From positions 62,001 to 126,000 of the forward strand of contig NZ_SBIV01000004.1 in assembly GCF_004765795.1 (NCBI RefSeq): DNA of 64,000 nt, read 5' to 3'. Source of the stretch: Halorussus marinus. Its GTDB lineage: Archaea > Halobacteriota > Halobacteria > Halobacteriales > Haladaptataceae. A program made the translations under genes and the position numbers. The first letter of the stretch is position 1, and every line of letters starts with the position of its first letter. Shown in pieces: positions 652-9,530 of this stretch. The notes beneath the pieces were generated by a model. That model was not told the origin of the DNA, searched no databases, and saw only the letters and a list, made by a program, of their open reading frames with translations.

Positions 652-1191
652 ATGGCCGACACAGACGTGACCGTCCGACCGTACGATCCCGACCGCGACG
701 CCCGCGACCTGTGGGACCTCAAGCGCGGGTTCGAACTCGGGCTCGGGTCGGGAACCGGCGGCGACGACAAGCGCGCGAAGTACGAAGGGAAGCTCACCGA
801 CGAGTACGGCGAGCGGTACCTCGACTGGGCGTTCTGGTGCGTGAAACACGAGCCCCGGTGCGTGACGGTGGCCGACGCGGGCGACGCCGGAGGGGGCGAC
901 GCGGACGCCGACGCCGACGCGCTCGCGGGCTACGTCTTCGTCCTGCCCCAACAGCTCGCGATGATCTGGGACGCCGCGGTGCTCAACGAGATCTACGTCC
1001 GGCCCGAGTTCCGCGGGACCGGCGTCGCGGACGACCTGATGGACGCCGCCGTGGGGCTGGCCCGCGATCAGGACCTCCCGCTGGAGAGGCTCGTGCTCGA
1101 CGTCGACCGGGAGAACGACCGCGCGAAGGCGTTCTACGATCGCCACGGCTTCGACCACTGGGGCGAGATGGTCGCGAAGGACCTGTCGTAG
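652..1191 (+). CDS. GNAT family N-acetyltransferase
   Basis: IYVRPEFRGTGVA acetyl-CoA motif A; NDRAKAFYDRHGF motif B. Confidence 0.9.
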   Translation: MADTDVTVRPYDPDRDARDLWDLKRGFELGLGSGTGGDDKRAKYEGKLTDEYGERYLDWAFWCVKHEPRCVTVADAGDAGGGDADADADALAGYVFVLPQQLAMIWDAAVLNEIYVRPEFRGTGVADDLMDAAVGLARDQDLPLERLVLDVDRENDRAKAFYDRHGFDHWGEMVAKDLS

Positions 1192-1365
1192 CCGGTCGCC
1201 GAGCCGCCCCGAGAACGGCTACGAACCGCTCTGAGAGCTACGCGCCGTTCCGTAGCACTATTTATATTCGGAAAGAAACCTTGAAGTCACGCTTGTGCCA
1301 ACCTCCGGACGAGGGTGGCGACGACGCCGGGTCGGCGACGGCTCGGGCGTCGCACCGATCACACA

Positions 1366-2247
1366 ATGTCTGGCACGACCGGCACGACGGACCGACGAGC
1401 ACCGAACCGACCGACTCCCGACCTCATCGCCCACCGCGGCTTCGCCGGCGTCTGCCCCGAGAACACGGTGGCGGCCGCCGAGCGCGCCGCGACCGGCCTC
1501 GGCCGCGGCGAGCCGCCCGCGATGGTCGAGATCGACGTGATGGCGAGCGCCGACGGCGAGCTCGTGGTGTTTCACGACGAGCGCCTCGGCCGGGTGACCG
1601 ACGCTCCCGACCGGCTCGCGGGCCAGTACGTCTGGGAGACTCCCTACGAGACGCTCGCCGAGCTCGAGGTGCTGGGAACCGGCGAGCCCGTCCCCCAGCT
1701 CGACGCGGTCCTCGACGCGATCCCCCCGGAGGTCGGCGTGAACGTCGAGTTCAAGAACCCCGGGACGGCCGCGATCCGCCCCCGCGAGAACCTCCCGCCG
1801 GGCGACCGCGAGGCCGAGACCGACCGCTGGCGCGCGTTCGCCGAGCGAGTGGTCTCGACGCTCGACGACCACGACAACGACGCGTTGATCTCGTCGTTCT
1901 CGGAGGGCGCGCTCGCGGCGACCCGGGCGGCCGACCCCTCGGTGGCGATCGCCGCGGTGTTCGCCGAATCGGTCGCCGACGGAATGGAGGTCGCCCGCCG
2001 GTACGACTGCGAGGCGATCCACGTCCCGTGGAACATGGTCCCCGGGACCGAGCTGTTCAACGCCGAGTACGGCTCGCTTGGCCCCTACGAGCCGGTCGAC
2101 CTCGTGGAGGTCGCCCACGAGGAGGGCCGGCGGGTCAACGTCTGGACCGTCGAGCGCTGGTATCAGGCGACCCAGCTCCGGGCCGCGGGGGTCGACGGGC
2201 TGATCGCGGACTACCCCGGTGTCCTCGGCTTCGGCGACGGCGAGTAA
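1366..2247 (+). CDS. Glycerophosphodiester phosphodiesterase (GDPD, GlpQ/UgpQ family)
   Basis: IAHRGFAG..PENT, EIDV, VVFHD, NVEFK, VWTV, GVDGLIADYP motifs; ATG at 1366 preferred over GTG at 1315. Confidence 0.92.
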   Translation: MSGTTGTTDRRAPNRPTPDLIAHRGFAGVCPENTVAAAERAATGLGRGEPPAMVEIDVMASADGELVVFHDERLGRVTDAPDRLAGQYVWETPYETLAELEVLGTGEPVPQLDAVLDAIPPEVGVNVEFKNPGTAAIRPRENLPPGDREAETDRWRAFAERVVSTLDDHDNDALISSFSEGALAATRAADPSVAIAAVFAESVADGMEVARRYDCEAIHVPWNMVPGTELFNAEYGSLGPYEPVDLVEVAHEEGRRVNVWTVERWYQATQLRAAGVDGLIADYPGVLGFGDGE

Positions 2248-2312
2248 TTCGAACGTGTGGCGGGGCCGGTAGGATTATGGATCGATACGTTGCGGTATTG
2301 AGCACTATATCC

Positions 2313-3899
2313 ATGAAGGGAGTGATTCTAGCGGCTGGTATCGGGTCCCGTCTACGGCCGCTCACGCTTCACGAGCCGAAAAGCTGTGTTACCGTCGCCG
2401 GCGAGCCGGTGCTCGGCCGACAGTTGCGCGCGTTCGACGACGCCGGCGTGAGCGACGTGACCGTCGTCGCGGGCTACCTCGCCGACGAGACGCGGGCGCG
2501 CTGTGAGGCCGTCTCGGTCGACCGGCCCGACCTCGAGGTGAGCGTCGTCGAGAGCGAGGTGTTCGCCAACACCGACAACATGTACTCGCTGTCGCTCGCC
2601 CGCGAGGCGGTCGCCGGCGAGCCGTTCGTGCTCGCCAACGGCGACGTGGCCTTCGAGCCCGACCTGCTCGCGGACCTCGTCGACGCCGACGCCGACAGCG
2701 CGGTGGCGTGCGACCGCGCGACCTTCTCCGAGGAGGCGATGAAGGTCACCGTCGACGACCGCGGGCTGGTGAGCCACATCGACAAGGCGGTCCCGGAGGA
2801 GGTGGCCCACGGCGTCTCGACCGACGTCTACCGGTTTTCCGCATCGTTCTCCTCGATGCTGTTCGACGAGATCGCCCGGACCATCGACCGGGAGGGCGAC
2901 TTCGGCGACTGGACCGAGGCCGCCATCGACCGACTCGTCCGCGACCGCGACCACGACCTGGCGACCGCCGACGTCACCGGCCGCGAGTGGGTGGAGATCG
3001 ACGACTTCGCGGACCTGACCGAGGCCGACCTCCGATTTGCCGGGCTGTCTGCCCTCGACGAGAAGGAGGCGGTGTTCTTCGACCTCGACGGGACGCTCTA
3101 CCTCGACGACGACCTCGTGGCGGGCGCCCGCGAACTCGTCGAGTTGCTCCGCGACCGCGGGGTCGCGGTGTACTTCCTCTCGAACAACTCCTCGGGGTGG
3201 AAAGACGAGTACGCGAGCAAGCTGACGAAGCTGGGCGTCCCAGCCGACCCAGACAGCGTGTTGCTCTCGACCGACGGGGTGATCCAGAACCTCGTGGAGG
3301 CCGACCCCGGCGAGGTGTTCGTCCTCGGAACCGACGCGATGCGCGAGGCGGTGGCGGCGGCGGGCGTCTCGGTCGGCGACGACGACCCCGACACCGTGGT
3401 GGTGGGCTTCGACACCGAACTCACCTACGAGAAGGCCCGGCGCGCGACGCTCGCGATTCGGGACGGCGCGACCTTCCTGCTGGCCCATCCGGACGACGTC
3501 TGCCCGACCGGCGAGGGGTTCGTGCCCGACTGTGGCGCCATCGGCGCGATGATCGGGCGCGCGACCGACCGGTCGCCCGAGCGGGTGTTCGGCAAGCCGA
3601 ACGCCGAGATGCTCGACCACGTCCTCGACGCCGAGGGGTACGCCCCGGCGGAGGTCGCGGTCGTCGGCGACCGACTGGCGACCGACGTGGCGCTCGCAGA
3701 GAGCGTCGGGTGCGAGTCGGTGTGTGTGCTCACCGGCGACGCAACCCGGGTCGAGGTCGAGACCAGCGACATCGAGCCCACGCTCGTCGCCCCGAGCGTG
3801 GCCGACCTGACCCGGTTCGTCGCGGCCGACACGTCCGCCGAGCGGGGCGACGCCGACGCGCCGGTGCCGTCGGTCGAGGGCGGTGAAACCGGTGACTGA
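2313..3899 (+). CDS. Fusion of a LicC-like cytidylyltransferase and a HAD-IIA (NagD-like) phosphatase/phosphotransferase
   Basis: N-half: ILAAGIGSRLRPLT..PK, NTDNMYSL, NGDV, EEAMKV, WVEIDD. C-half: FFDLDGTLY, LSNNS, GKP, VGDRLATD. One continuous frame from ATG 2313. Confidence 0.9.
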   Translation: MKGVILAAGIGSRLRPLTLHEPKSCVTVAGEPVLGRQLRAFDDAGVSDVTVVAGYLADETRARCEAVSVDRPDLEVSVVESEVFANTDNMYSLSLAREAVAGEPFVLANGDVAFEPDLLADLVDADADSAVACDRATFSEEAMKVTVDDRGLVSHIDKAVPEEVAHGVSTDVYRFSASFSSMLFDEIARTIDREGDFGDWTEAAIDRLVRDRDHDLATADVTGREWVEIDDFADLTEADLRFAGLSALDEKEAVFFDLDGTLYLDDDLVAGARELVELLRDRGVAVYFLSNNSSGWKDEYASKLTKLGVPADPDSVLLSTDGVIQNLVEADPGEVFVLGTDAMREAVAAAGVSVGDDDPDTVVVGFDTELTYEKARRATLAIRDGATFLLAHPDDVCPTGEGFVPDCGAIGAMIGRATDRSPERVFGKPNAEMLDHVLDAEGYAPAEVAVVGDRLATDVALAESVGCESVCVLTGDATRVEVETSDIEPTLVAPSVADLTRFVAADTSAERGDADAPVPSVEGGETGD

Positions 3900-4680
3900 G
3901 GGGGTCCGAATCGGGTACGTCACTCAGACCCACACCGGCGAGGTCGGGTGGCGCGAGGCGATCGACGCCGGCGCGGCGATCGGCTTCGACTACGTCGAAC
4001 TCTACATGGACGGGGCGACCGAACGGACCGCCCTCGACGCCGGGGCGGTCGCCGACGCGCTCGACGACGCGGGGCTCGATCTGCTGGTCCACCTCCCGTT
4101 CGCGGACCTCGACCTCGGGACGCCCCGCGACCGAGTCCGGACGGCGTGTCTCGACGAACACCGCGCCTGTCTCGATGGCGCCGCCGAGATGGGCGCCGAG
4201 AAGGCCGTCTTGCACGCGAGCTCCGACGCCTCGCCCCCCGAGTGGGCGTTCGACGAGATCCGGCCCCGCCTGTTCGAGGCCGTCCGGGAACTCGACGCGG
4301 CCGCCGCCGACCGGGACATCGAGCTCTGCGTCGAGAACCTCCCGGGCGTCCGCTTGACAGTCCACGACTTCGAGGCGGTGTTCGCCGAGACCGACGCCGC
4401 GATGACGTTCGACACCGACCACGCCCGGGTCGACGGGCTGGACGCCGAGGCCACGGCCGCGTTCCTCGACGACCACCGCGATCGGGTGAGCCACGTCCAC
4501 GTCAACGACGCCCGAGAGGCCCGCGACGAGCACGTCCCGGTCGGTTCGGGCACGACCGACTTCGAGACCGCGCTTTCGCCCCTCCGGGACGGCTGGACCG
4601 GCACGCTCTCGGTCGAGGCCTACACCTTCGACGACGAGTATCTGGCGCTCAGCAAGGAGAAGCTGGACGGCTACCTGTGA
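3892..4680 (+). CDS. Sugar phosphate isomerase/epimerase family (xylose isomerase-like/AP endonuclease 2 TIM barrel)
   Basis: GFDYVEL, VHLPF, LCVENLP, FDTDH, HVHVND, DEHVPVGSG, SVE motifs; overlaps the upstream stop codon. Confidence 0.85.
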   Translation: MTEGVRIGYVTQTHTGEVGWREAIDAGAAIGFDYVELYMDGATERTALDAGAVADALDDAGLDLLVHLPFADLDLGTPRDRVRTACLDEHRACLDGAAEMGAEKAVLHASSDASPPEWAFDEIRPRLFEAVRELDAAAADRDIELCVENLPGVRLTVHDFEAVFAETDAAMTFDTDHARVDGLDAEATAAFLDDHRDRVSHVHVNDAREARDEHVPVGSGTTDFETALSPLRDGWTGTLSVEAYTFDDEYLALSKEKLDGYL

Positions 4681-5721: not shown

Positions 5722-6438
5722 ATGGACGTCAGCTTCGACTTCACCGACTCGGTCGCGCTGGTCACCGGCGCCAGTGGCGCGCTCGGCGCCGCGGTCTGCG
5801 AGGCGTTCGCCGACGCGGGCGCGACGGTCGCCGCGGCGGACGTGGTGGCGCCCGACGACGGCGAGGCGGGACTCGATACGGGCGGGGCCATCGACTTCTA
5901 TCGCGGGGACTTCACCGACGAGCGCGAGGTCGAACGGGTCGTCTCGGAAGTCCTCGCCGACCACGGTCGCCTCGATTGTCTCGCCAACGTCGCGGGGACC
6001 TGGAAGGGCGGGGCGCCGATCGAGGACACCGACGTCGAGACCTTCGAGACGCTGTTCGACGTGAACCTCAAGACGGCGTTTCTGGCGAGCAAGCACGCGT
6101 TGGCCCACCTGCGCGAGCGCGACGGGCGCGGCGCGATCGTCTCGGTGTCGGCCCGGTCGTCGCTCGAAGGCGGCGAGGGCGACGGTCCGTACCGGGCGTC
6201 GAAGGCGGGGGTGCGACTCCTGACCGAGACCATCGCCGCCGAGAACGCCGGGGAGGTGCGGGCCAACGCCGTCATGCCGAGCGTCATCGACACGCCGGCG
6301 AACCGCGAGATGATGCCCGACGCCGACCACGACGCGTGGGTCGATCCCGCCGACATCGCCGAGGTGGTCCTGTTTCTCTGCTCGGACGCCGCGAGCGTAA
6401 CCAGCGGCGCGGCGGTCCCGGTGTACGGCGAGGCCTGA
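5722..6438 (+). CDS. SDR family oxidoreductase
   Basis: VTGASGALG, NVAG, YRASK catalytic motif, PSVIDTPAN. Confidence 0.92.
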   Translation: MDVSFDFTDSVALVTGASGALGAAVCEAFADAGATVAAADVVAPDDGEAGLDTGGAIDFYRGDFTDEREVERVVSEVLADHGRLDCLANVAGTWKGGAPIEDTDVETFETLFDVNLKTAFLASKHALAHLRERDGRGAIVSVSARSSLEGGEGDGPYRASKAGVRLLTETIAAENAGEVRANAVMPSVIDTPANREMMPDADHDAWVDPADIAEVVLFLCSDAASVTSGAAVPVYGEA

Positions 6439-6622
6439 GGCGACCCCGGCCGACCGAGATCCCCGCCGACCGACCGTGAGAGCCCCGTTCGGTCGGCCAT
6501 TGACCGTTCGTCCATTTCGGCCGACATGAACGGCGGTTACTGAAAATACTGTCGGCAAAAATCGCCACAACGCGAACGAACCGTGGCGTTTATGCAGTGT
6601 GGTTTGGAAGCCAACGCCACAC

Positions 6623-7957
6623 ATGGCACAACGAGAGACGTGGACGAGTCGGATCGGTTTCATCTTCGCCGCCGTCGGGAGCGCGGTCGGCCTCGGGAAC
6701 ATCTGGTCGTTCCCGTTCCAGACGGCTTCGAACGGCGGGGCGGCGTTCCTCGTCGTCTATCTGGCCGCGGTGTTCCTCATCGGCTTCCCGACCATGATGA
6801 TCGAGTTCGTCATCGGTCGGCGCGGCGAGAGCAACCCCGTCGCCGCGTTCAAGTCGATCGGCCACGGCGAGTGGTCGTTCGTCGGCGGCCTCGGCGTGTT
6901 CTCGTCGCTGGTGACCCTGGCGTTCTACAGCGTCATCGGCGGGTGGGTCCTCAGCTACATCGTCGGGAGCCTCAGCGGCGCCTACTTCGGCGACCCCGCG
7001 ACGTACTTCGGGTCGGTGTCGACCGGGAACGTCGCCATCGCGGCTCACGCCGTCTTCATGGCGATCACCATCGGCGTGGTCGCGGCCGGCGTCACCGGCG
7101 GCATCGAGCGCGCGACCAAGTTCATGATCCCCGCGATCCTCATCCTGCTCGTCGGCCTCGGCGCGTGGGCCACGACGCTCGACGGCGCCGCGGCGGGCTA
7201 CGAGTACTACCTCTCGCCGGACTTCGGCGTCATCGTCGACAACTTCGCGTCCATCGTCCCGCCCGCGATGGGACAGGCGTTCTTCACGCTGTCGCTCGGG
7301 TTCAGCGTCATGATCGCCTACGCCTCCTACCTCGGGCGCGACGACAGCCTGCCGGCCGACGGCGGGGCGATCGTCGTGGTCAACACCCTCGTCGCGCTGC
7401 TGGCGGGGTTCGTCGTGTTCCCGCTCCTGTTCGCGACCGGCGGCGTCGAGGGCGCCGGCGGCGGTGCGGGCACGGCGTTCATCGCCATCGCCGGCGCGTT
7501 CGGCACCCTCCCCGCGGGCGGGATCCTCGGGGCAGTCTTCTTCGTCGTCCTGCTGTTCGCGGCCCTCTCGAGCGCGATCAGCCTCCTCGAAGTTCCGGTG
7601 TCGTTCGTGAGCGAGAACTACGGCTACGGCCGCACGACGACCGCCGTCGCGATGGGCGTCGGCATCTTCCTCCTCGGCGTCCCGACGACGTTCGGCACGT
7701 CGTGGCTCAACTTCTACAACGACGTGGTGTTCAACCTCCTGCTCCCGATCGCGGTGCTGTTGCTCGCGGTGTTCGTGGGCTGGGTCGCCAACACCGAGGC
7801 GATCGACGAGATCGAACTCGGCTCGTCGTTCGGCCCGTCGTTCGCCACGGGGTGGCTCTGGTGGGTCCGCATCGTCGTCCCCATCGCGGTCATCGTGACC
7901 CTCTACCTCGGCGTCGACTCGCTGTACTCGGGCATCGTCGCCGGCGACTACTTCTAG
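6623..7957 (+). CDS. Sodium-dependent transporter (NSS/SNF family), copy 1
   Basis: RETW..GFIFAAVGSAVGLGNIWSFP, GQAFFTLSLG, many TM helices. Confidence 0.95.
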   Translation: MAQRETWTSRIGFIFAAVGSAVGLGNIWSFPFQTASNGGAAFLVVYLAAVFLIGFPTMMIEFVIGRRGESNPVAAFKSIGHGEWSFVGGLGVFSSLVTLAFYSVIGGWVLSYIVGSLSGAYFGDPATYFGSVSTGNVAIAAHAVFMAITIGVVAAGVTGGIERATKFMIPAILILLVGLGAWATTLDGAAAGYEYYLSPDFGVIVDNFASIVPPAMGQAFFTLSLGFSVMIAYASYLGRDDSLPADGGAIVVVNTLVALLAGFVVFPLLFATGGVEGAGGGAGTAFIAIAGAFGTLPAGGILGAVFFVVLLFAALSSAISLLEVPVSFVSENYGYGRTTTAVAMGVGIFLLGVPTTFGTSWLNFYNDVVFNLLLPIAVLLLAVFVGWVANTEAIDEIELGSSFGPSFATGWLWWVRIVVPIAVIVTLYLGVDSLYSGIVAGDYF

Positions 7958-8195
7958 TCGCCTGAGGGCGACCGCGGTTTTTCGAATCGTCGGACCGATC
8001 GAGTAGCCGATGCTACGAATCGACGCGTCTCCCGCGTCAGCCGACGGTTCTTTCTACGAATCGTAGCCGGTATCGCTGATTGACGGGGTTTGGGATCCCG
8101 AAAAATCCGGATATACGCCCGAGAATTATTATATTTTCCAACCTACGGTTCTAAACTCGAAACTCTCTTACCCGCGGACTGTCGAGTGTGGGCCA

Positions 8196-9530
8196 ATGAC
8201 ACGCGAATCGTGGCGGACCCGCGTCGGCTTCATCCTCGCCGCCGTGGGAAGCGCAGTGGGATTAGGTAACATCTGGCGGTTCCCGTGGATGACCGCCGAG
8301 AACGGCGGGAGCGCGTTTCTGGCGGTGTACCTCGGGATCATCCTGCTGGTCGGGGTGCCGGGCCTGCTCGCGGAGTTCGTGATCGGGCGACGCTCCCAGC
8401 GCAACCCGGCGGGCGCGCTCTTTCGGCTCTCCGGGTCGAAGTCGTGGGGCGCTGTCGGCCTGTTCGGGGTCGTGACCGCGCTCGCGTTGCTGTCGTTTTA
8501 CAGCGTCGTCGGCGGGTGGATCTTCCGGTACTTCCTCGCGAGCTTCACGGGGTCGTACTTCGGGTCGCCCGGCGCGTACTTCGAGGGGATCAACTTCGGC
8601 ATCGAGGCGCTTGGGTTTCACGCCGCCTTCCTCGGGGTGACCGCGTTCATCGTGCTCGGTGGGGTCCGGGACGGCATCGAGAAGGCGACGAAGGTGATGA
8701 TGCCGGCCATCCTCGCCCTGCTGGTCGCGCTCGCGGGGTGGGCGATCACCCAGCCGGGCGCCGACGCGGGGCTCGCGTTCTACCTCGACTTCGACGCCGC
8801 GTACCTGCGGGCGAACCTCTTGGACGTGATCGGCGCGGCCGCCGGACAGGCCCTCTTTACGCTCTCGCTGGGTGCGGGCACCATGATCACGTACGCCTCG
8901 TACCTCGGCGACGACCGGGACCTCGCGGTCGACGGCAGTACGATCGCGGTGCTGAACACCGGCGTCGGCGTTCTGGCGGGGCTCGTGGTGTTCCCGCTGC
9001 TCTTTACCACCTTCGGCGAACTCACCGGTCCCGCGGCGGCCGGCGGCGGGCCCGGCGCGCTGTTCGTCTCCATCGCCGGGGCGTTCGCCCAGCTCCCGCT
9101 CGGGGGCGTGATCGCGGTGGCGTTCTTCGGAGTCGTCTCGCTGGCGGCGCTCTCGTCGTCGATCAGCATGCTCGAAATCCCGGTCGCGTACCTCGTCGAC
9201 GAACACGGCGTGAGCCGGCGGACCGCCACCCTCTCGCTGGCGAGCGTGATCCTGTTCACCGGGGGCGCGAACGCGCTGAATCCCGCGCTGTTCGACTTCG
9301 TGGCGAGCACGCTCGTCGATCTGATGCTGACCGCCGGGCTGGTCGGATTTCTGCTGTTCGTCGGCTGGGTGCTCGGCGCCGACGCGCTCGCGGAGTACGC
9401 CACCGGCGCGGGCGCCCGGTCGCGGTCGGTCGGCCCGGCGTGGCTCTGGTCGGTCCGGACGATCCTGCCGCTCTTCTTGCTCGGGACGCTCGCGGTGAAT
9501 CTGCTGGCGCTGGCGGGCGTCTCGCTGTGA
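8196..9530 (+). CDS. Sodium-dependent transporter (NSS/SNF family), copy 2
   Basis: RESW..GFILAAVGSAVGLGNIWRFP, GQALFTLSLG. Confidence 0.95.
   Translation: MTRESWRTRVGFILAAVGSAVGLGNIWRFPWMTAENGGSAFLAVYLGIILLVGVPGLLAEFVIGRRSQRNPAGALFRLSGSKSWGAVGLFGVVTALALLSFYSVVGGWIFRYFLASFTGSYFGSPGAYFEGINFGIEALGFHAAFLGVTAFIVLGGVRDGIEKATKVMMPAILALLVALAGWAITQPGADAGLAFYLDFDAAYLRANLLDVIGAAAGQALFTLSLGAGTMITYASYLGDDRDLAVDGSTIAVLNTGVGVLAGLVVFPLLFTTFGELTGPAAAGGGPGALFVSIAGAFAQLPLGGVIAVAFFGVVSLAALSSSISMLEIPVAYLVDEHGVSRRTATLSLASVILFTGGANALNPALFDFVASTLVDLMLTAGLVGFLLFVGWVLGADALAEYATGAGARSRSVGPAWLWSVRTILPLFLLGTLAVNLLALAGVSL

Follow-up and report, generated by a model that had tools for sequence, protein, structure and literature searches.

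A nucleotidyltransferase–HAD fusion of Halorussus marinus belongs to a conserved four-gene haloarchaeal module that may make CDP-activated glycerol phosphate for a TagF-like transferase

The genes considered here lie at positions 1366–4680 of a 64,000-nucleotide stretch of DNA from the haloarchaeon Halorussus marinus (contig NZ_SBIV01000004.1, positions 62,001 to 126,000; hereafter the window). They encode, in this order, a glycerophosphodiester phosphodiesterase (GDPD), a protein in which a LicC-like nucleotidyltransferase is fused to a haloacid dehalogenase domain of the HAD-IIA type, and a triosephosphate isomerase (TIM)-barrel enzyme of the AP_endonuc_2 family. They account for three of the four members of a module that is conserved in haloarchaea; the fourth is a TagF-like transferase of the Pfam family PF04464. 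We consider it probable, at roughly 0.6, that the module makes cytidine diphosphate (CDP)-activated glycerol phosphate, likely CDP-2-glycerol, for this TagF/WchX-type transferase. A sequence-only reading of the window had already proposed a CDP-glycerol pathway; the comparisons described below support that proposal and add to it a transferase partner that was unseen in the window, where no PF04464 gene is present.

Among 301 genomes of Halobacteria from 80 genera, a sample in which related genomes are not independent, the full-length fusion is encoded by 16 genomes of 6 genera, and the remaining matches are stand-alone HAD-IIA paralogues. The PF04464 family occurs in 40 of the 301 genomes: in all 16 of those that carry the fusion versus 24 of the 285 others. 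A genome of the window's own genus (G188) has neither the fusion nor a PF04464 gene. When about 8 kb on each side of the fusion were fetched for the other 15 fusion-bearing genomes and searched with tblastn, the same genes reappeared in several orders. Four genomes, all from the genus and family to which the window belongs, have the order TagF-like transferase, GDPD, fusion, TIM barrel, and seven from two further genera have the order TIM barrel, TagF-like transferase, GDPD, fusion; two genomes have the transferase, GDPD and fusion, one genome shares with the window the order GDPD, fusion, TIM barrel, and in one the fusion stands alone. The linkage of the three window genes that had been suspected is thus conserved, with the GDPD gene adjacent to the fusion, directly upstream, in 15 of the 16 genomes and the TIM-barrel gene within the cluster in 13 of 16; the PF04464 gene is next to the fusion in 13 of 16. 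Because the cluster recurs, with rearrangement, in six haloarchaeal genera, its gene arrangement is not due to chance.

The sequences that flank the module are of unrelated housekeeping types, vary by genus and include A-type ATPase genes with a rhodopsin gene, a phosphoglucomutase gene and Kae1. In one genus (L126:98-11277, genome G078) the four-gene module and a bacteriorhodopsin-like gene lie between the genes for the A and B subunits of an A-type ATPase and that for its D subunit, as if the module had been inserted into the ATPase operon. The genome in which the fusion stands alone (L128, G127) is the sole fusion-bearing member of its genus (1 of 15); there the fusion is situated in a stretch of 53% G+C in an otherwise high-GC genome type, with the PF04464 gene 28 kb away, and the locus looks like a recently acquired island.

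The type of pathway that we propose is already known from pneumococci. In that system Gtp1 reportedly serves as a reductase, Gtp3 as a glycerol-2-phosphotransferase and Gtp2 as a cytidylyltransferase, their joint product being CDP-2-glycerol, a scheme said to come from the work of Wang and coworkers in 2010; the associated WchX is presumably a member of PF04464. Two papers give the pneumococcal gene order as wchX-gtp1-gtp2-gtp3, with gtp1-3 making nucleoside diphosphate (NDP)-2-glycerol and wchX encoding the glycerol-2-phosphate (Gro-2P) transferase (PMC5581491; PMC1391919). The haloarchaeal module resembles this system in that a HAD-IIA domain comes next after a nucleotidyltransferase of the LicC type and both are tied to a glycerol-phosphate transferase, and a locus of a Bacilli-class genome, in which the two enzymes are split, has the same order with genes homologous to both halves of the fusion. 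Unlike the pneumococcal system, the nucleotidyltransferase and HAD parts are fused here, GDPD and an endonuclease-IV-type TIM barrel are present instead of a Gtp1-type reductase, and the host is an archaeon. Unlike the pneumococcal capsule locus, moreover, the haloarchaeal module is not surrounded by a polysaccharide locus: no glycosyltransferase, flippase or other glycan genes flank the haloarchaeal clusters.

In the mechanism that we envisage, GDPD would take the slot of Gtp1, releasing glycerol phosphate from glycerophosphodiesters and so feeding the fused enzyme. The HAD domain would provide the glycerol phosphate isomer required by the nucleotidyltransferase domain, which would condense it with CTP to form CDP-glycerol, and the putatively membrane-associated TagF-like enzyme would transfer glycerol phosphate from CDP-glycerol to a putative membrane-associated acceptor. 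For the TIM barrel we predict the role of another phosphodiesterase, dependent on metal and serving supply or turnover.

Open reading frame calls and Pfam matches bear out the description of three co-directional genes, all on the plus strand, in a window whose approximately 70% G+C is that of high-GC haloarchaeal DNA. The GDPD gene occupies 1366–2247 (293 amino acids; start ATG at 1366, or GTG at 1315) and the whole fusion 2313–3899 (528 amino acids; ATG at 2313, alternative ATG at 2277). The TIM-barrel gene (3883–4680) had been described as overlapping the stop of the fusion, and it does: the fusion's TGA is at 3897–3899, and the overlap amounts to 17 nt from a GTG at 3883 or 8 nt from a GTG at 3892, any later start entailing the loss of the conserved N-terminus. 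The motifs quoted for the fusion (NTDNMYS, EEAMKV, STDVYRFS, WTEAA, WVEIDD, DLDGT, NNSS, VGFDTELT, CPTGEGFVPDCG and SVCVLTG) are all present in its translation.

The LicC-like nucleotidyltransferase half, a predicted cytidylyltransferase, is encoded by positions 2313–3041 on the plus strand (residues 1–243). It matches the Pfam families NTP_transf_3 (1.6e-13) and NTP_transferase (9.5e-08) over residues 1–135 and beyond, and its best match in the Protein Data Bank is LicC (1jyk; E 1.7e-12, residues 2–234). The signature LAAGxGSRLxPxTxxxPK is for the most part kept in alignments of 13 haloarchaeal sequences and of 14 mixed ones, with G9, G11, R13, K23 and others invariant. The HAD-IIA half, encoded by positions 3042–3899 on the same strand (residues 244–528) and in a Gtp3-like position, matches Hydrolase_6 (3.4e-21) and Hydrolase_like (1.3e-17) over residues 254–499 (to about 503) and reaches 124.9 bits with TIGR01460 (HAD-SF-IIA; cut-off 100.15). 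Its motifs DLDGT, NNSS, GKP and GDRLxTD vary little or not at all; in the 13 haloarchaeal members HAD motifs I–IV and the nucleotide-binding signature are both kept, mostly as invariant residues. An acidic tail begins at about residue 505. The structural relatives of this half are of the NagD type and include the glycerol-3-phosphate phosphatases 4i9f (E 1.1e-25) and 7po7; with TK1734_fam it scores 170 bits, under the cut-off of 475. At E <= 1e-5 the fusion is matched by 444 proteins of similar length. Its nearest named relatives, from Halorussus species, are 72–76% identical, and all named relatives are labelled "HAD-IIA family hydrolase" or "HAD superfamily hydrolase".

The fusion is not confined to archaea. 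A scan of one genome per species yielded full-length matches in 12 bacterial loci, 31–42% identical over residues 1 to about 500, the hosts being Pseudomonas and other Gammaproteobacteria, Campylobacterota, the Bacillus cereus group, Calditrichota, Synergistota, Zixibacteria, Melainabacteria and Desulforhabdus. Archaeal and bacterial fusions are colinear from end to end and have a common linker and many common motifs. Pfam annotation of 109 neighbouring open reading frames showed that the bacterial fusions have flippases, chain-length regulators and glycosyltransferases as neighbors. A PF04464 gene lies near the fusion in 11 of the 12 loci (in ten by Pfam and in L008 by tblastn), the twelfth being a contig of 3.6 kb. 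In L004, L009 and L010 the next gene downstream of the fusion encodes a GpsA-like glycerol-3-phosphate dehydrogenase, and neither a GDPD nor a TIM-barrel homologue was detected in any of the 12.

The split form of the two enzymes occurs in 1 of 401 Bacilli-class genomes (G656), in a locus with the order glycosyltransferases, flippase, PF04464 transferase, Fe-ADH_2 reductase, nucleotidyltransferase (237 amino acids) and HAD-IIA protein (276 amino acids). The HAD-IIA gene overlaps the nucleotidyltransferase gene by 11 nt, and the two products are, respectively, 34% and 36% identical to the corresponding halves of the window's fusion. The sequence H-x-D-x-x-C-P had been considered as a defining signature of the HAD half and was dropped, the split Bacilli homologue reading N-P-D. 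One bacterial locus stands apart by its setting: in a member of the Bacillus cereus group (L013:3113-13493) the fusion is found between two flagellin genes, together with a GT2-TPR protein and a GT2-Glyphos_transf fusion, which suggests a flagellin glycosylation containing glycerol phosphate. Glycerol 2-phosphate has also been described in the Escherichia coli O33 O-antigen, as cited in PMC7685785. At the nucleotide level (blastn, "distant" setting), E. coli genomes gave no match to two of the bacterial fusion genes.

A maximum-likelihood tree, built quickly from 67 HAD-IIA sequences, places the HAD half more precisely. It comprised 8 haloarchaeal and 15 bacterial fusion halves (4 of the latter being the C-terminal 265 residues of proteins from a database search with the HAD half), 28 stand-alone proteins (18 from a set of 65 stand-alone loci and 10 from the same database search) and 16 generic haloarchaeal paralogues, 2 of them from the Halorussus marinus genome. 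A branch with a support of 100 in the Shimodaira–Hasegawa-like approximate likelihood-ratio test (SH-aLRT) has the 16 generic paralogues on one side and all fusion halves on the other. The haloarchaeal halves form one clade (support 100) that also includes P0267, a protein of 262 amino acids entered as stand-alone, and this clade adjoins bacterial fusions and stand-alone proteins with a support of 85. Among the sources of the stand-alone proteins on the fusion side are marine group II archaea, Asgard archaea and Aminicenantes. In Aminicenantes one of them (L015:76-1471) is encoded directly 3' of a CDP-alcohol phosphatidyltransferase gene, a pairing which may mean that in this lineage the HAD acts as a phosphatase once the CDP-alcohol has been transferred.

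The claim that both halves differ from generic enzymes is borne out, the nucleotidyltransferase half having LicC as its best structure and the HAD half standing apart from the paralogues: the fusion is neither a generic NagD nor a generic sugar nucleotidyltransferase. One might still suppose that a generic sugar-1-phosphate nucleotidyltransferase and a generic NagD-type phosphatase were joined by chance and share no common pathway, as the bare public label "HAD-IIA family hydrolase" and low-scoring NCBIfam hits on GlmU and on enzymes of the AglF type might suggest. Conservation of the fusion and its linker from archaea to bacteria, the presence of PF04464 in every one of the 16 fusion-bearing genomes and the tree all argue against it, and we regard such a chance fusion as extremely improbable.

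A profile of the nucleotidyltransferase half divides its matches among the 301 Halobacteria genomes into three tiers: the 16 fusions (at least 282 bits), 12 stand-alone LicC-like nucleotidyltransferases (161–191 bits) and, lower, generic sugar nucleotidyltransferases. The 12 stand-alone proteins, in 12 other Halobacteria, are each encoded directly upstream of a PF04464 gene; the name given to stand-alone homologues in databases is "phosphocholine cytidylyltransferase family". Near these 12 pairs there is no GDPD, TIM-barrel or fusion-type HAD gene. Hence, the HAD, GDPD and TIM-barrel parts occur jointly, as an addition to a core nucleotidyltransferase–transferase pair, which fits a role in substrate supply or turnover. 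In three of the pairs, all of one genus (L129:7097-11967 of genome G069, L130 and L131), an APH-family kinase gene is directly upstream in two and 4 kb away in the third, and a gene for a thiamine-diphosphate enzyme follows the pair in two of the three; the other nine pairs have neither trait. The kinase was considered as a replacement for the HAD part and rejected, adjacency in a single genus (2 genomes of 12, with a third 4 kb off) being too weak.

The nucleotidyltransferase could act on another phospho-alcohol, such as phosphocholine, ribitol phosphate or a different polyol phosphate, with GDPD splitting a diester to free this alcohol, with or without its phosphate. Among solved structures, the one nearest to the nucleotidyltransferase half is indeed the CTP:phosphocholine cytidylyltransferase LicC, the stand-alone homologues are named after the same activity, and PF04464 includes ribitol-phosphate transferases. 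LicC is, however, a distant match, the partner here is TagF-like and not LicD-like, and the known users of CDP-choline are of the LicD type and are not known to include members of PF04464. Furthermore, the product of GDPD is glycerol phosphate and the reductases linked to the bacterial homologues (GpsA-like and Fe-ADH_2) belong to types that handle glycerol or its phosphate, so that the linked enzymes point to glycerol phosphate and activation of another alcohol appears improbable.

The transferase of Halorussus marinus itself is encoded on another contig. The single PF04464 match of the genome is at G000:C6:27285-28736 on the minus strand (483 amino acids; 205 bits versus a cut-off of 22.1). 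It adjoins an Obg-like GTPase gene, the same flank as in a relative of the same genus with an intact cluster, and therefore a rearrangement has parted the transferase gene from GDPD and the rest of the cluster. On the window's contig (C4), GDPD, fusion and TIM barrel follow a GNAT gene (window positions 652–1366 were compared), and both breakpoints lie inside contigs. No tag, tar or export genes were found beside the C6 gene. The genome has no equivalog of TagD (35.8 bits versus a cut-off of 165.4), and the fusion is therefore its only evident source of a CDP-alcohol; it also has no convincing GpsA-type gene, the best match to PF01210 scoring 26 bits. The likeness to the Gram-positive teichoic acid route of TagD and TagF (TagB) is that a PF04464 transferase would presumably be fed by a CDP-glycerol-forming enzyme; in contrast to that route, the donor would here come from an unrelated nucleotidyltransferase fold, and the transferase gene stands alone.

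With fractions of 0.13 acidic and 0.12 basic residues and a hydrophobic N-terminal helix, the TagF-like protein fits a membrane-associated enzyme. This bears on a further alternative, in which the product is a soluble glycerophosphodiester solute of the diglycerol-phosphate type, condensed by the TagF-like enzyme, relieved of its terminal phosphate by the HAD domain and degraded by GDPD and the TIM barrel. All parts but the transferase look cytoplasmic, two phosphodiesterases are linked while glycan genes are missing nearby, and Archaeoglobus makes phosphodiester solutes via CDP-alcohols with a final phosphatase step. The known solute synthases, however, belong to the CDP-alcohol phosphatidyltransferase family and are not known to be TagF-like, the bacterial fusion homologues are situated in polysaccharide loci, and the helix and low acidity of the transferase fit membrane association; we rate a solute pathway as very unlikely.

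The GDPD of the module is a clear member of its family (Pfam 113 bits, 2.5e-32, cut-off 23.6), with the N-terminal HR motif present as IAHRG at residues 23–27. Its maximum 19-residue Kyte–Doolittle hydropathy is 1.29 and there is no hydrophobic leader; the protein is predicted to be cytoplasmic. A second GDPD of the genome (G000:C5:207445-208329) shares 54% identity with that of the cluster, and its gene adjoins one for a generic HAD-IIA protein (C5:208644-209381). Such neighbors were also seen, as judged by coordinates, in at least three other Halobacteria (G193, G099 and G166), and the two genes may form a glycerophosphodiester salvage pair.

In another reading, the fusion makes ordinary CDP-glycerol (sn-1 or sn-3) and its HAD domain is a glycerol-phosphate phosphatase that, with GDPD, takes part in the recycling of head groups or glycerophosphodiesters and controls precursor supply, without glycerol-2-phosphate. 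Glycerol-3-phosphate phosphatases (4i9f, 7po7) are among the structures related to the HAD half, the second GDPD adjoins a HAD-IIA gene, and the 12 nucleotidyltransferase–TagF pairs manage without any HAD. The Mycobacterium tuberculosis Rv1692 (4i9f) pathway of head-group recycling likewise pairs a GDPD with a HAD-IIA enzyme acting on the glycerol phosphate that the GDPD produces. In opposition, a phosphatase fused to the consumer of its own substrate would be futile, the HAD half falls outside the clade of generic paralogues, and the fusion or the adjacency of its two parts recurs in bacterial polysaccharide loci, where recycling would not be expected. Unlike in the Rv1692 system, moreover, the HAD here forms one protein with a nucleotidyltransferase and is linked with a transferase, an arrangement more in keeping with synthesis than with degradation. 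This reading strikes us as unlikely, though more probable than the other alternatives to the proposed CDP-2-glycerol pathway.

The TIM-barrel enzyme, which had been named as no more than that, is confirmed as such and is more specifically a candidate endonuclease-IV-type phosphoesterase. It scores 105 bits with AP_endonuc_2 (7.1e-30; cut-off 31.1), and its best NCBIfam match is CbiR (NF041277), a cobamide-remodelling phosphodiesterase, at 75 bits and thus under the cut-off of 105. The predicted model has a predicted local distance difference test (pLDDT) score of 84.9; Foldseek returned the uncharacterised MJ1311, which the literature searched names in one paper on a different subject, as the closest structure, followed by ketose epimerases, among which those of the DTE type rank highest. 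Because the fold search does not separate epimerases from phosphoesterases, residues were aligned instead. The nine-residue His/Asp/Glu site, of the metal-ligand type of endonuclease IV, consists of H70, H111, E151, D177, H180, H206, D215, H217 and E245, all invariant in 12 cluster-linked orthologues. Profile alignment matches eight of the nine to the same amino acids in endonuclease IV of M. tuberculosis (5zhz), E245 lying past the aligned stretch, and the same eight are identical in MJ1311 (3wqo) and TTHB071, the closest structures. The epimerase UlaE has no equivalents of H70, H111, H180, D215 and H217, five ligands that the family carries in addition to the Glu-Asp-His-Glu site of ketose 3-epimerases (DTE/UlaE type). 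Since it has endonuclease-IV-type ligands and CbiR as its best NCBIfam match, the enzyme is predicted to be a metal-dependent phosphoesterase rather than an epimerase. Its orthologues (at least 348 bits) are present only in 13 fusion-bearing genomes among the 301, and paralogues of at most 258 bits are widespread in Halobacteria. One of these is in the present genome (G000:C4:301198-301968); it is 47% identical and lies among ABC transporter genes, an uninformative context, and similar paralogues occur in 55 other Halobacteria of the 301.

Several observations weigh against the proposed CDP-2-glycerol pathway. No GpsA-like or Fe-ADH gene is present in the haloarchaeal clusters, which therefore have no linked reductase of the Gtp1 type. 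In 12 pairs a nucleotidyltransferase can serve a TagF-like enzyme without HAD, so that the HAD step is not general, and the chemistry proposed for it is tentative. When the DNA around the stand-alone HADs on the fusion side of the tree was fetched, 0 of 65 loci had a nucleotidyltransferase or TagF-like neighbor; membership of that HAD clade is therefore not a mark of this pathway. Paralogues close to the cluster copies of GDPD exist across Halobacteria with no gap in score between the two, and it is therefore from position that a role for GDPD is deduced. Finally, no pneumococcal protein is among the best 120 matches of either half of the fusion; the suggested kinship to Gtp2 and Gtp3 is drawn from architecture and context and not from an alignment to those proteins.

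The remainder of the window offers little that relates to the module. A GNAT acetyltransferase gene is on its 5' side, and a zinc-type dehydrogenase, a short-chain dehydrogenase/reductase (SDR) and two SNF-family transporters are on its 3' side; the other Pfam families of the window are of unrelated housekeeping types. The absence of glycosyltransferases from the window, which had been remarked upon, holds for the Pfam scan of the open reading frames called in it. The SDR gene and the two tandem SNF-family sodium symporter genes (window 5722–9530) keep their order in relatives of the same genus and family and not in other genera, which probably reflects local synteny only.

A bolder form of our proposal can be stated, although we hold it only tentatively and think it on the whole unlikely. 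Some haloarchaea might use CDP-2-glycerol to assemble a glycerol-phosphate polymer resembling teichoic acid, or to decorate their envelope, by means of a portable four-gene kit, in which salvage by GDPD replaces the Gtp1 reductase and the TIM barrel is a new pathway phosphodiesterase that, for example, opens 1,2-cyclic glycerophosphate to glycerol-2-phosphate. A literature search on haloarchaea with CDP-glycerol or glycerophosphotransferase returned no relevant paper among the matches listed, and the fused enzyme has no public name beyond "HAD-IIA family hydrolase".

If the proposed CDP-glycerol pathway is correct, natural nulls such as the same-genus genome G188, which is without both fusion and transferase, are ready comparison strains. 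A function would then be available for many archaeal and bacterial proteins that are labelled only "HAD-IIA family hydrolase", and the MJ1311-like branch of the endonuclease-IV TIM barrels would be tied to the metabolism of small-molecule phosphodiesters. Members of some haloarchaeal genera (6 of the 80 sampled) would make CDP-glycerol by a route unrelated to TagD and use it with a TagF-type enzyme, and teichoic-acid-type chemistry would thereby extend to the archaea.

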